Shown here piece after piece: positions 27,501 through 30,445 of a stretch of 64,000 bases of DNA; within the stretch, counting starts at the first letter, position 1, and every line of letters begins with the position of its first letter. This DNA comes from an uncultured Acidimicrobiia bacterium (GTDB lineage: Bacteria > Actinomycetota > Acidimicrobiia > Spongiisociales > JAENVV01). A program made the position numbers and the translations under genes. The notes below the pieces were generated by a model. It did not search any database, was not told where the DNA came from, and saw only the letters and a program-made list of their open reading frames with translations. Location of the stretch: contig CAWKAG010000058.1 of NCBI GenBank assembly GCA_963847455.1, positions 5,644 through 69,643 on the forward strand, in the 5' to 3' direction.

Positions 27501-30445
27501 GTGAACGTCGAGCGATACTCACGCTCGTTGGCGACGATGCCCTGGTCCTTGACTCGGAAGAAGGGAATCTGGTCATCTCCGCCCACGATGACAATATTGG
27601 CTATGTCTGGATTGGACGCCCGGTAGCTGTCAACCAGTTCTCCAATTGCCGTAGCGACCGCGTTTGCGGCATCGACACTGCAGTTTCCGCTGGCGCCGAG
27701 CCAGGTGGTGTAGGCGGCAGCTACGGCCGGATTGCCTTCCACTGGTACGACTACACCGGCTGGAGCGAATCCGGAGTTGTTGACGGCGTCAATCGCATTT
27801 AACACGTTGGTGGTCGCCGCAGAACCGAAAGTGTCACCGAACAGTTCCGTGTTCATCAGGTACAAGGTTTCGACGCCAGCCAGGTCGGTCGGTAGCGACC
27901 CTGCCAAGCCGTCACCGGCGTTGGCCAAGACGCGCGGGGCGCAGGCACTTGCGACAGGGGCATCGATTACACGAATGCGGCTGACATACACCGATTCAGG
28001 CGTTGCTCCGTTGTATCCGGAGATCTGCAAGAAGAAGTCGCCACCTTCGCGCAGGGGCGGGGTAACAATGGCCTCGTTGGCCGTCGACCGATGCAGCGAC
28101 GCCTTGAAGACTGGCGCGATATCGGTATTGGCGATATCCGCCAGGCTCTCTTGATCCTGTTCCACCGGGTCGATCCCGATCGTCGGGTCGAGCGAGCCAT
28201 CCACGATGCGCTCTGCCGGGCCACGCAATTCTCCGTCCGAGGTCTGACCCGGTTCAAACAGCACGAGATCCAGGTCAACCCCTCCAGGGTTCAGGTAGGC
28301 CTCGATGGTCGCACCTGGCGGAACATTGAGTTTGAACATATCCACATCGTCTTCGGTCCCAATCCGCCCGAGTACAACCACATCGCCGGACACCGCAGTG
28401 GCCGTGCCGAAGGTGTCATTGGGTTCCACATCGAGGACAATCGTCGGCGCCGTATCCGTCGCTGTGTAGCCAAGGGTGTTGACCGTCGTTGCTACAGGAG
28501 TCGTCGTATCGGCAGTGAACGATGTTCCCAGGTCGAAGAGGATGACCCGGCTCGAGTTCAGCTCAAGCCCGTCAACGATCCATTGAAGCGTATTGCCATC
28601 TTCTTCAGGGTCGCTCAGCGGAACGGCGGACGCACCTTCAACACTTATCCGGGCGGAGCCGGGAACGTAGGCCATGCCCGCTGGGAGGTTCACGCTCGCT
28701 TCAGCAGTAAAGGCGAATTCAGCTCCGGGGACCAGGCCAGGTTCGCCTGCCATGGTGAAGTCTACCGACCATCCCGTCACCGCGGGGTGCTGCGCAGCGA
28801 GCACGGCTGGATCGACATCTTCCCAGCCCAGTTCGCCCGGGTTGAGCAGAGCAAGAAGCAGCTCAAAGACCGGCATTCCAACCCACAGTTCGGCCAATTG
28901 GCCAAGCGTCAACTCCGGGGGAAGCTCGGCGATCGTGGTCTCGGGCAACAGATCCAGCAGGGTCGCTGTACCGACGAGGGCAACAATATCTAGTCCGGCT
29001 TCAGCGAGGTCAGACAACGGTATGTCACCTATCGCCCCAGCCAGATCCCCCAGCGTGGCGGTGGGGAGAATGAGTCCGAGCTGCTGGAGTTCGAACAGCG
29101 TTAACAACCCATTGCCTGAGCATCCCCCTGCGAGCGATCCACAACTGATGATGGCCGACGGGTTGGCGATCGCTCCCAGCTGAATCGCTCCCAGCTGAAT
29201 TGCCCCTAGCTGAGTACTCGTCGGAATGGCTCCTAGCTGAATCGCACCCAGTTGAATGGCACCAAGCTGCGCGAAAACCGGATTGTTGAAATCGATCGCG
29301 CCGAGCTGAATGGCTCCGAGCTGAGTTGAACTGGGGCCAATGGCGCCAAGCTGAATCGCCCCCAGTTGCGTGCTAGCCGGATCGATCGCACCGAGCTGAA
29401 TCGCACCCAGCTGAATCGCCCCGAGCTGGGTGCTTTCGAGGTCGCCGATAGCCCCCAGCTGGATAGCGCCGAGCTGAATCGCGCCAAGCTGGGTGCTCAG
29501 CAAGTCGGCACCCATAGCTCCGAGAGCCAGGAGGCTGTAGCCGTCGAGTTCATCGCCAACGAACGGACCAGCTGGATCGAGCCCAAGTTCAGAACAGTCC
29601 AAACCGCTTGCACAAAAATCGGCGACCAGGTTGGCCTTGTTGATGGCCCCAAGCTGGATGGCACCCAACTGAATCGCGCCAAGCTGAATCGCCCCGAGCT
29701 GCGTGTTCCCGATCGTTGCCTCATTGGCACCGATTGCCCCAAGCTGGATAGCACCGAGCTGGATCGCACCGAGCTGAATGGCACCTAGCTGCGTTCCCGA
29801 TGGGTCGATCGCACCGAGCTGGATCGCTCCGAGCTGAGCGAAGTCGAGATCGACCCCCATCAGGGTCAACGCCATGACGCTGTAGTCGTCGAAGCTGTTG
29901 CTGTTCGAGGGGTTGATGCCAAGAGCACCGCAATCGAGGTCGCCCGCACACAAAGCGGCGAGCTGATCGCCGATCGCACCCAGCTGAATTGCCCCGAGCT
30001 GAATCGCTCCCAACTGAATTGCGCCAAGCTGGATCGCACCAAGTTGGATGGCCCCGAGCTGGCTGGCGGTAACCCCCGACTCGGCGATGCGCAGATCTCG
30101 CAGTAGGTTCAGGTTGACGACCTCGTCGATCACCTGCTGGAGCGTGACAGTGTACGACGGCCGACCGGCAAGGGACGTACCGGCCAGGATCGGTTCCCAA
30201 CCGCCGACCATCGGCACGTCGACGAGTGTGACTTCATCGAGGATGGTTGGTATGACAGTCGGCGACGCCGCTGCGGTGATCTCGTTGGCAGCATCGATTA
30301 TCGACCCGATGGTCATGTGACCGGCGGCGTCGGCCAAGCCCGATGGCACCCAACTGAATCGCACCAAGCTGGATGGCACCGAGCTGGATCGCACCGAGCT
30401 GCGTCGAGGACGGTCCGTCGGTCGCTCCGAAGAATGTCCCGACAT
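24578..30445 (-). CDS. Largest intact fragment of the giant gene: QLGAI arrays, PPC domain, C25 (gingipain)-like module, Ig/FN3-like and PKD domains, C-terminal beta-rich domain
   Basis: 1,955-aa ORF. The first roughly 35 codons (to about 30340) are out-of-frame read-through of the upstream QLGAI array. The rest has clear domain motifs; see the sub-features. Confidence 0.8.
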   Translation of the reverse strand: MSGHSSERPTDRPRRSSVRSSSVPSSLVRFSWVPSGLADAAGHMTIGSIIDAANEITAAASPTVIPTILDEVTLVDVPMVGGWEPILAGTSLAGRPSYTVTLQQVIDEVVNLNLLRDLRIAESGVTASQLGAIQLGAIQLGAIQLGAIQLGAIQLGAIGDQLAALCAGDLDCGALGINPSNSNSFDDYSVMALTLMGVDLDFAQLGAIQLGAIDPSGTQLGAIQLGAIQLGAIQLGAIGANEATIGNTQLGAIQLGAIQLGAIQLGAINKANLVADFCASGLDCSELGLDPAGPFVGDELDGYSLLALGAMGADLLSTQLGAIQLGAIQLGAIGDLESTQLGAIQLGAIQLGAIDPASTQLGAIQLGAIGPSSTQLGAIQLGAIDFNNPVFAQLGAIQLGAIQLGAIPTSTQLGAIQLGAIQLGAIANPSAIISCGSLAGGCSGNGLLTLFELQQLGLILPTATLGDLAGAIGDIPLSDLAEAGLDIVALVGTATLLDLLPETTIAELPPELTLGQLAELWVGMPVFELLLALLNPGELGWEDVDPAVLAAQHPAVTGWSVDFTMAGEPGLVPGAEFAFTAEASVNLPAGMAYVPGSARISVEGASAVPLSDPEEDGNTLQWIVDGLELNSSRVILFDLGTSFTADTTTPVATTVNTLGYTATDTAPTIVLDVEPNDTFGTATAVSGDVVVLGRIGTEDDVDMFKLNVPPGATIEAYLNPGGVDLDLVLFEPGQTSDGELRGPAERIVDGSLDPTIGIDPVEQDQESLADIANTDIAPVFKASLHRSTANEAIVTPPLREGGDFFLQISGYNGATPESVYVSRIRVIDAPVASACAPRVLANAGDGLAGSLPTDLAGVETLYLMNTELFGDTFGSAATTNVLNAIDAVNNSGFAPAGVVVPVEGNPAVAAAYTTWLGASGNCSVDAANAVATAIGELVDSYRASNPDIANIVIVGGDDQIPFFRVKDQGIVANEREYRSTFTGNNPLVAALGDGTVLTDAPYSDPNPLYVPQGDREVFIPQLPTGRLVDQPAEILASLAQFVASNGELETVVSTTDPAPAAQVLGYDFLSDSSATIAASLTSQGFAVTSTVSETWDKLVLKGAMDSPSAIVNANAHFDHTAALPAAGNLTNTFTNLYQLADLQPPSSGAYEGKIIFSMGCHAGTNAPDSYLAAGDPVTEWAQELLLREAVFVGNTGFGYGDSDFEAYSEELMSLFAQKIETSNTVGEAFVAAQQTMAGKTPKWSPYHDKSQMEATLYGLPFYRLHESLISAPVNPTVSTAPDGTGLESAAVSASAAITQIAATDGDYLVADDVLAVPFRPVQPLELINVTPTTASLRAAGAIIEGGTSSDLPNFDVLYARPILYNELAEPETETTGAFPNALQAITSFENPGGTVDQLLLARGRYFPSTSTQQRWDAMDLTVYYVPDSVADVTPPTISRVSAVEITAGQVNFEVEAEDDSGVLRVVVLYKQAGTTGAWTKLELGSTSGPWTGNVSGLTAAENVDFFVQVLGGDGQVVVSTDKAEMHQVLPPGPPTIQVSGVLGNNGIYKSPAQVALAGPANAPGAALEYSIDSGPFSGYTGPFELADGTHTVRAQPTIPSASLTTKTVVVDSMAPTVSVENPIAPGVKLELNSVVPLQYFCADTGGTGIAKCKGTVGNGAPLPTDSVGLHVAQVTATDKAGNTTVTLVPYEVVPEGPMTLTADQSIVPVDTTVTFTATYSDTGGPHSVEWDFDGDGLFGDLPVTSTSSTSGDDEVTEATFLYGSTGVYPVSVRVTHGIGGYVQTEVLRYIVVYDPAEGFVTGGGWFNSPIGAYTPGDNEDPAIVGKAHFGFVSKYKKGSSVPTGNTSFELKAGDLDFESTSYEWMVISGKKAQYKGLGVVEGYEGVFQFRLTAMDADVNPNDNFDKDTFRIEIWQSGNGPKFVLYDNGLGADPSGDEGTTELGGGSIKIHSGKKK
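24581..25065 (-). other. C-terminal beta-rich domain of giant protein (GGGWF...AHFGFVSKYKKG...FRLTAMDADV...DTFRIEIW...GGGSIKIHSGKKK)
   Basis: Conserved-looking roughly 160-aa terminal module with alternating-strand sequence. No LPXTG, PEP-CTERM or T9SS-type sorting signal recognised. Confidence 0.5.
25070..25355 (-). other. PKD domain of giant protein
   Basis: VTFTATYSDTGGPHSVEWDFDGDG...GVYPVSVRVTHG matches the PKD-domain WDFGDG signature. Confidence 0.7.
26650..27700 (-). other. Peptidase C25 (gingipain)-like clan CD module of giant protein
   Basis: IANIVIVGGDDQIPFFRV, VLTDAPYSDP, NANAHFDH and IIFSMGCHAGTN resemble the C25 motifs (LLIGD..IP, sD.yY, GHG, catalytic Cys). The candidate catalytic Cys codon is at 26966-26968. 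Confidence 0.55.
28250..28430 (-). other. Bacterial pre-peptidase C-terminal (PPC)-like domain of giant protein
   Basis: EPNDTFGTATAVSGDVVVLGRIGTEDDVDMFKLNVPPGATIEAYL...DLDLVLFEPG fits the EPND...A..l...G.i....DvD.y.f PPC pattern. Confidence 0.65.
29168..30405 (-). repeat. Coding tandem repeat: 36 perfect QLGAI pentapeptides (15-nt period) in 11 arrays of 2-6 units, interrupted by two paralogous Cys-containing inserts
   Basis: Translation shows (S/T/A)QLGAI(QLGAI)n arrays. Units use different synonymous codons (for example CAGCTCGGTGCGATC, CAGCTAGGGGCAATT, CAACTGGGTGCGATT, CAGTTGGGAGCGATT). Inserts LCAGDLDCGALGINP...DDYSVMALTLMGVDL and FCASGLDCSELGLDP...LDGYSLLALGAMGADL are paralogous. Confidence 0.9.

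Follow-up and report, generated by a model that had tools for sequence, protein, structure and literature searches.

Perfect QLGAI pentapeptide arrays in a giant gene of an uncultured Acidimicrobiia bacterium, a candidate glutamine form of an uncurated five-residue repeat of secreted proteins

The DNA analysed here, a stretch of 64,000 nucleotides from an uncultured Acidimicrobiia bacterium (the window), carries on its minus strand a giant gene of about 9.5 kb (24578-34069), the middle of which encodes 36 perfect units of the pentapeptide QLGAI in 11 arrays. We propose, with a probability of about 0.5, that these arrays are the lineage-specific glutamine form of a five-residue repeat for which no curated model exists, and that they belong to a fixed module of giant secreted proteins. 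The QLGAI peptide is held by purifying selection, with its synonymous sites at equilibrium. Judged from sequence, QLGAI is a minority, Pro-less variant of a large family of P-hydrophobic-G-[A/S]-hydrophobic repeats, and appears to be related to the classical pentapeptide repeats at the level of periodicity alone.

The repeats occupy positions 29168-30401 of the minus strand. In the order of translation they form array 1 (30342-30401, 4 units), array 2 (29972-30061, 6 units), array 3 (29807-29836, 2 units), array 4 (29732-29791, 4 units), array 5 (29642-29701, 4 units), array 6 (29447-29491, 3 units), array 7 (29384-29428, 3 units), array 8 (29339-29368, 2 units), array 9 (29294-29323, 2 units), array 10 (29225-29269, 3 units) and array 11 (29168-29212, 3 units). 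An earlier note on this DNA had given the same total, the same number of arrays and the same counts per array, all of which were reproduced in the minus-strand translation; the end that it gave for the region, 30405, is one base past the codon preceding array 1. The 15-nt period of the arrays was picked up by Tandem Repeats Finder (TRF). The unit consists of 60% L+A+I and 20% Gly, contains 0% Pro and is uncharged. Array 1 lies in the frame of the open reading frame (ORF) 30234-30719, which differs from the frame of the other ten arrays; therefore no single translation contains all 36 units. The earlier note had read all arrays in one translation, which breaks at a 1-nt insertion near 30335-30340.

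Seven short linkers separate arrays in the window (DPSGT, GANEATIGNT, GDLEST, DPAST, GPSST, DFNNPVFA and PTST). The lengths of 4, 5, 6 and 8 residues noted earlier are correct, and a linker of 10 residues has to be added to them. Arrays 2-11 also carry the two paralogous Cys-loop inserts and the closing Cys pair that had been described, all three on the minus strand. Cys-pair insert 1 (LCAGDLDC...SVMALTLMGVDL; 29846-29953) corresponds to the family loop 'WC...C...TLL.L.L.G', in which C85 is invariant and C91 is at least 90% conserved in A2, a 48-sequence alignment of the family. Cys-pair insert 2 (FCASGLDC...SLLALGAMGADL; 29501-29617) is its paralogue, and the third Cys pair (ISCGSLAGGCSG; 29114-29149), equivalent to the family element 'NC....C', closes the repeat region.

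Variation among the 36 units is synonymous only, and the codon sets match those listed before: Q is encoded by CAG/CAA, L by CTC/CTT/CTG/CTA/TTG, G and A by all four of their codons, and I by ATC/ATT. The units represent 30 distinct 15-mers, with a mean pairwise difference of 2.9 nt per 15. Of the 45 single-base changes that a unit can undergo, 33 would be nonsynonymous, and none of these was seen across the 36 units. The zero nonsynonymous change together with the saturated synonymous sites excludes chance as the source of unit identity. Adjacent units differ as much as random pairs do (2.92 vs 2.92 nt), the codon entropy of the arrays equals that of the remainder of the gene, and the longest exact DNA repeat is 26 nt, so nothing points to recent duplication or gene conversion. 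Comparison with orthologues revealed amino-acid identities of 91-98% in the arrays vs 53-73% in the flanks, with codon identity at conserved residues in the arrays equal to the shuffled null. Hence the view of the earlier note, purifying selection and not recent DNA amplification, is borne out by the lack of an adjacency signal, the saturated synonymous sites and the array identity between orthologues. No positional signal was detectable at synonymous sites between orthologous units, and since these sites are saturated, vertical descent is inseparable from old gene conversion. The constraint is strong, not absolute, as 5 of the 38 units of the orthologue P0002 read QLGSI and 11 of the 33 units of the relative P0003 read QLSAI. 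From one orthologue to another, array length changes in steps of whole units. A 30-nt DNA period reported by TRF for two arrays was rejected, because units two apart are no more alike than random pairs.

An exhaustive HMMER search returned 257 proteins at E<=1e-3, of which 80 reach E<=1e-10; orthologues 56-80% identical over the repeat region are among them. The repeat family that the earlier note did not recognise is indeed covered by no Pfam or NCBIfam model, and QLGAI can now be placed as a minority form among these 257 matches. Family statistics cover only those proteins that have fitting units or carry the GW marker, a motif outside the repeats ('GW...L.GT.L...P..TVTL..VI'; 30119-30205 of the minus strand in the window) that is found family-wide ahead of the main arrays; its W2 and P15 are at least 90% conserved in A2, and AlphaFold2 gives it a pLDDT of about 90. 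Weak HMMER matches with units such as AVRCG, RLGSA, QVGAx and FSSVQ were excluded, since they are probably calls out of frame or on the antisense strand. The consensus unit of the family is [P/Q]-[LIVFM]-[G/S]-[A/S]-[IVF], with PLGSI the commonest form, followed by PLGAI, QLGAI, PLSSI, PLSAI, PVGSI, PIGSF, PFGAI and others. Among the 62 proteins that also carry the GW marker, on which the dominant-unit statistics are based, the first position is Pro in 50 proteins and Gln in 6, the second is L/I/F/V/M, the third is Gly in 40 and one of S/R/A/D/H in the others, the fourth is Ala in 29 and Ser in 27, and the fifth is I/V/F. The pair F+F at positions 2 and 5 occurs in none of the 62, as would be expected if the two positions shared one core.

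The window shows the markers of the module, namely the GW...P..TL motif before the arrays, the Cys-Cys loop within them and the closing Cys pair. A choice-of-anchor Q domain upstream and a peptidase-C25-like region downstream are present as well, in a polypeptide interrupted by frameshifts. The C25-like region is common to 56 of the 150 matches listed; most of the others are shorter than 1000 aa and may be fragments. The named matches of the family belong only to Actinomycetota, mostly to metagenome-assembled genomes (MAGs). Among species-representative genomes the only close relative is an Acidimicrobiia MAG (60% identity), and further true members were found in a bacterium of unassigned phylum and in a Streptosporangiaceae MAG. 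A word-indexed protein search with the repeat region gave one match, P0001, and with the 48-sequence profile three. The resulting figure of 'one homologue in 5.8 billion' was discarded as reflecting the low sensitivity of this search, which missed orthologues of 56-80% identity; a claim of rarity based on it alone would be wrong. Low-complexity word sharers crowding the candidate list are the likely reason for the misses.

Linker lengths were also evaluated over the family. The 598 short linkers comprise 461 of 5 residues and 92 of 10 residues, so that 92% are 5 or 10 residues long. Linkers of 5 residues follow the pattern D-[LIV]-x-x-[ST] and are thus degenerate units in which the hydrophobic position 2 is retained. 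A perfect run and its linker together most often span 15 residues, then 20 and then 10. These linker statistics suggest that the five-residue phase runs through the structure without a break. The earlier statement that the arrays are not in a constant five-residue register is accurate for three of the seven short linkers in the window and does not extend to the family. Regular super-repeats were observed in three relatives: (PLSSI-PLSSI-DWAST)n at residues 197-399 of P0111 and (PMSAI-PMSAI-DIxAT)n at 993-1184 of P0049, both with a 15-residue period, and (KFGSI)3-DLxST at 290-475 of P0017, with a 20-residue period. Such proteins may best reveal the number of units per structural turn.

The register also bears on another explanation, in which every unit would be a motif that is recognised or processed, for example by the C25-like peptidase of the same protein, by a partner protein or by a modifying enzyme, with unit identity kept for recognition. 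It would account for the conservation of all positions, even those expected to be exposed, and for units that are uniform within a protein and differ between lineages, as for a co-evolving partner, and a protease-like domain is present in the same polypeptide. However, independent motifs need neither a strict five-residue phase nor a hydrophobic position 2 in the linkers, and we regard this explanation as quite improbable.

We propose instead a regular, solenoid-like rod in which the units would be stacked, all in the same five-residue register. Leu at position 2 and Ile at position 5 would be buried, position 4 would be small, and positions 1 and 3 would be exposed, an inside/outside pattern as in the classical pentapeptide beta-helices, with I at i-2, P/Q at i-1, L at i, G at i+1 and A/S at i+2. 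The presumably disulphide-bonded loops formed by the extracellular Cys pairs may punctuate the rod, and like-on-like stacking could lead to purifying selection at every position and to uniform units within a protein. The module has a fixed plan, which runs from the GW...P..TL motif through short arrays, the Cys-Cys loop and long arrays to the closing Cys pair. The giant proteins that carry it appear to share one domain order, with a signal peptide, a PMP-type beta-helix, a choice-of-anchor Q domain enclosing a lectin, the repeat module, a peptidase-C25-like domain and Ig/PKD domains. As a rigid spacer or scaffold, the rod might hold apart a carbohydrate-binding N-terminal part and a protease-like C-terminal part of a secreted adhesin/protease. 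The ordered rod is favoured because every position is constrained, the phase is kept, the linkers keep the hydrophobic position, and the composition is hydrophobic, uncharged and Pro-free. Secretion is supported by the signal peptide and the conserved Cys pairs. Taken together, we give the ordered rod a chance just short of even.

Several results weigh against it. The whole of Pfam, including all four pentapeptide models (PF00805, PF13599, PF13576 and PF01469), gave nothing at E<=10 with the window repeats, P0001 or a plain (QLGAI)12 string as query. AlphaFold2 with five sequences yielded a mean pLDDT of 35.6, with the arrays at 23-26. With 48 sequences the mean pLDDT rose to 68.2, and the GW region, the first array and Cys insert 1 reached 75-93 as helix/turn; the first array itself (74-81) was helix/turn, the later arrays stayed at 32-45, and no beta-helix was formed. 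Foldseek found no match in the PDB at E<=10. When the A2 profile is aligned with PDB sequences, hardly any residue but the periodic Leu is identical, and no single stretch does better than about 1e-4; comparison with a genuine pentapeptide-repeat protein by hhalign gave 2.7% probability. Ile at i-2 is much bulkier than the classical Ala and should not fit the known square core. The window linkers of 4, 6 and 8 residues are out of phase. The spacer role is one that we infer, and its chance, too, lies a shade below even. An AlphaFold2 model of such low confidence is, however, not decisive against the four-sided beta-helix.

The very low AlphaFold2 confidence over most arrays is also what would be expected if they were intrinsically disordered, hydrophobic, elastin-like tethers for which composition and length alone matter. 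The variation of array length between orthologues by whole units agrees with such tethers, as do the 20% Pro and 20% Gly of most family members and a mean hydropathy equal to that of the VPGVG of elastin (0.63). However, a tether predicts neither zero substitutions at five positions in 36 units at saturated synonymous sites, nor 92% of linkers in phase, nor a position 4 restricted to small residues, and the units of the window contain no Pro. By the Pro/Gly rule for elastomeric proteins, reportedly formulated by Rauscher and co-workers in 2006, the QLGAI composition would not be elastomer-like. Disordered tethers are therefore considered unlikely.

If the arrays are ordered, the question is in which fold. 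A sequence search of the PDB with the whole ORF gave nothing below E = 0.3. An hmmsearch of the PDB with the A2 profile matched the designed 'beta1' protein 4yc5 (3e-13), 3du1 (9e-8) and 2o6w (6e-4), and its matches are solved classical pentapeptide-repeat proteins (4yc5, 3du1, 2j8k and 2o6w; All3740, Np275/276, Rfr23 and Qnr) and little else. The alignments place I at i-2, P/Q/D at i-1, L at i, G at i+1 and A/S at i+2. Consistent with this register, positions 1 and 3 of the family unit are variable, position 4 is small and positions 2 and 5 are hydrophobic, which would match the inside/outside pattern of the classical fold. The poor fit to the classical A(D/N)LXX consensus remarked on earlier holds at the level of the Pfam models, since only Leu at i agrees, with Ile at i-2 and Gln at i-1 (Pro in most relatives); at the level of the family profile, I-(P/Q)-L-G-(A/S) does align with solved members.

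The arrays might thus be divergent classical pentapeptide repeats forming the right-handed, four-sided beta-helix, with nothing structurally new. Five-residue periodicity with a central Leu, the nearly exclusive profile matches and the positional variation all agree with this, and the 'breaker' units of the arrays give I-D-L-x-x followed by (S/T)-P-L-G-x, nearer to A(D/N)LXX. Relatives with PLGSF/PIGSF units come close to one of the curated models: P0151 passes Pentapeptide_2 (PF01469) with 40.2 bits at a cutoff of 26.4, and P0152 falls just short of it (25.8). On the other side, neither the window arrays nor the PLGAI, PLSAI and PLSSI relatives match any Pfam pentapeptide model at E<=10, the hhalign probability is very low, and i-2 is Ile/Val/Phe where the classical repeats have Ala/Ser/Thr, and i-1 is Pro/Gln where they have Asp/Asn. 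AlphaFold2 usually folds classical pentapeptide repeats with confidence and formed no beta-helix here, a comparison drawn from experience with no positive control run. We therefore hold the classical helix to be improbable. A previously unseen repetitive fold, such as a beta-helix with three units (15 residues) per turn or another solenoid, has a better chance and is nonetheless doubtful; if true, giant secreted proteins of uncultured bacteria would commonly contain structural repeats of a new class.

A different kind of objection is that the repeat is an artefact and that the true gene lies on the opposite strand and encodes classical pentapeptide repeats. The antisense of the QLGAI arrays (window plus strand, e.g. 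ORF 29366-29788) reads (T/A/P)(E/Q/K)L(D/N)(R/G), resembling A(D/N)LXX, because of the CAG/CTG codon pair. Genuine pentapeptide-repeat genes of Skermanella and Synechococcus (L004, 9980-11275; L007, 9566-10384) gave spurious antisense tblastn matches to QLGAI. Loci of Skermanella, two of the Synechococcus group and one of Vulcanococcus, four of the seven in the genome-contig scan, were rejected on this ground, the two that were inspected being antisense to genuine A(D/N)LXX genes. However, the plus-strand ORFs across the arrays are interrupted and at most 140 aa long, whereas the minus-strand ORF has 1955 aa, conserved flanking domains and orthologues of 56-80% identity. The mimicry does not apply to Pro-type units, whose antisense would, by the genetic code, have Gly/Arg/Trp and not Leu at the centre. 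The orthologues exclude the artefact, which we rate as next to impossible. In practice the antisense of Gln-Leu repeats is a trap, since it mimics classical pentapeptide repeats and produces spurious matches.

The giant gene itself is colinear with the intact 2979-aa orthologue P0002 in six frame segments. A tblastn search of the window with P0002 located five frameshifts, near 33780, 31107, 31055, 30831 and 30340, all inside the 5' 3.7 kb of the gene. Where the context is readable, they are single-base indels in short G/C-rich stretches, in both directions. Frameshift 5 (30335-30341, minus strand) consists of one extra base in 'ATCGGGCTTGG' directly 3' of array 1 and parts array 1 from the rest of the gene; at the corresponding site P0002 has the uninterrupted QLGAIGSDLTSAAGHMTI. 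No in-frame stop occurs in any segment, ORFs of 936 and 1955 codons are open, and identity to P0002 is 61-84% except in two N-terminal beta-helix segments (34-40%). The earlier note had raised a decayed pseudogene with no intact orthologues as a case against the repeat; it does not apply, as P0002, a JGI protein, is full length and uninterrupted, and the partial MEGAHIT contig L002 is uninterrupted too. Programmed frameshifting was rejected, given five sites that shift in both directions and orthologues that read through.

The gene in this assembly would thus be either freshly inactivated or mis-assembled. A dead pseudogene with untranslated arrays in the source genome, which would leave the role of the module in relatives unaffected, is suggested by the five frameshifts in both directions against the intact P0002, one of them between arrays 1 and 2, and by their density, five in 3.7 kb of the giant gene vs about two in the other ~54 kb by coding-potential scan and Pfam. 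Against it stand the two long ORFs free of stops, the mostly retained identity to P0002 and the nature of the lesions, all 1-nt indels in short G/C-rich contexts, as is typical of consensus errors. Other genes of the window are split too (MFS_1, probably ABC-2), and the same kind of break is found on related contigs: the orthologous giant gene is broken once on L009 (3586-3603), once on L010 (16912-16914) and many times on L001. Recent inactivation is thus somewhat the less probable of the two, and consensus error somewhat the more probable. A second practical trap is that assemblies often break the long, repeat-bearing genes of this family by frameshifts.

Split or possibly split genes elsewhere in the window were recorded as well. 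An MFS_1 transporter (35841-36978, minus strand) is divided into profile positions 4-154 at 36295-36978 and 160-346 at 35841-36518, with a frameshift near 36480. In two tandem ABC-2 permease genes (37951-40346, plus strand), the second domain match and coding potential start at ~39350, ahead of the first start codon of that frame at 39477, and the first frame is open to 39699; a frameshift near 39360 is probable. A cupredoxin/plastocyanin-like ORF abuts a multicopper-oxidase-like ORF (51241-52870, minus strand); coding potential of the downstream copper-oxidase ORF reaches the junction at ~51865, beyond its first start codon at 51690, and the two could be fused or frameshifted. Several other adjacent ORF pairs from the coding-potential scan were rejected as split genes and are separate genes.

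From N- to C-terminus, all on the minus strand, the giant protein comprises a signal peptide, a beta-helix region, a Q domain around a lectin, array 1, the GW motif, arrays 2-11, the C25-like region and a weak PKD match. The N-terminal segment (33779-34069) contains a Sec-type signal peptide (MADRAIWTRVHSVLLVFLMVATLLAAPPPEIARA), as read by eye. It is followed by a right-handed beta-helix region with PMP/POMP-type repeats (31393-33786; Chlam_PMP 22.0 bits, cutoff 20.6; POMP_repeat 20.7, cutoff 15). The choice-of-anchor Q domain is represented by an N-terminal half (31300-31392; profile positions 1-31) and a C-terminal half (30534-30614; profile positions 32-58), with 41.3 bits at a cutoff of 25. 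Between them lies a legume-lectin-like domain (30608-31290) containing three of the frameshifts; since positions 1-31 of the Q profile are upstream and 32-58 downstream of it, the lectin appears to sit between the Q halves. In P0002, three stretches of the Q model (the region of residues about 690-995) accompany a Lectin_legB match (88 bits, residues 734-964). The gingipain-type, peptidase-C25-like region (26246-27745) shows the motifs NAHFDH and FSMGCHAG, found by eye. The 1955-aa ORF has no PF01364 match at E<=0.1, and its residues 901-1400 align at 7e-77 to residues 1754-2275 of P0006, which passes Pfam Peptidase_C25 (26.1 bits vs a cutoff of 23). A PKD-like Ig domain (25094-25351) is a weak match of 22.9 bits, below the cutoff of 23.5. 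The giant gene adjoins a gene for a 1229-aa adenylate/guanylate cyclase-AAA_16-TPR protein (20813-24502, plus strand), and the same gene (6212-9886 of L010) adjoins the orthologue on that contig, tail-to-tail in the window and head-to-head in L010. The neighbourhood is therefore conserved, with one gene inverted.

Hundreds of very large secreted proteins carry the repeat; neither Pfam nor NCBIfam has a model of it, it has no solved structure, and the searchable literature does not mention it: NCBIfam gave nothing on the window repeats, and a literature search found no match to multi-unit repeat strings and 'QLGAI' only in two unrelated papers. Current structure prediction fails on these arrays. 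A defined module would improve the annotation of giant surface proteins in metagenomes, and the rare uniformity of the units makes them a clean structural target that could show either the stretch limit of the pentapeptide-repeat helix or a new solenoid geometry.

Compared with known systems, the arrays are nearest to the classical pentapeptide repeats (PF00805, PF13576 and PF13599; the Rfr fold of MfpA, Qnr, Np275/276 and Rfr23), with which they share tandem five-residue units, an invariant central Leu, a further inward-facing residue at i-2, and a variable and a small residue at i+1 and i+2, respectively. Apart from the different residues at i-2 and i-1, the QLGAI arrays are short (2-6 units in the window), broken by degenerate units and Cys-loop inserts, and embedded in secreted proteins of 2000-4000 aa. 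Pentapeptide_2, the XNXGX repeat of mycobacterial PPE-MPTR proteins, has the same five-residue period and a periodic Gly, whereas QLGAI, PLGAI, PLSAI and PLSSI arrays do not match it at E<=10, lack an Asn column and stand in another protein context. The hexapeptide-repeat left-handed beta-helix ([LIV]-G-x-x-[STAV]-x) resembles the unit in having an aliphatic residue, a Gly and a small residue a few positions on, and three units per turn would fit the commonest 15-residue period of the family; its period, however, is six and not five, and no sequence or fold match to it was obtained. Elastin-like VPGVG repeats and Pro/Gly-rich elastomers are likewise hydrophobic tandem pentapeptides of similar mean hydropathy and low predicted order, whereas in the window all five positions are invariant and the unit is without Pro, and across the family the phase is strictly conserved. 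Finally, gingipain-type (peptidase C25) secreted proteases and choice-of-anchor Q (CSLREA) surface proteins have the C25-like region and the Q domains in common with the giant protein, and what sets the latter apart is the pentapeptide array module, found in none of the curated models or literature searched.

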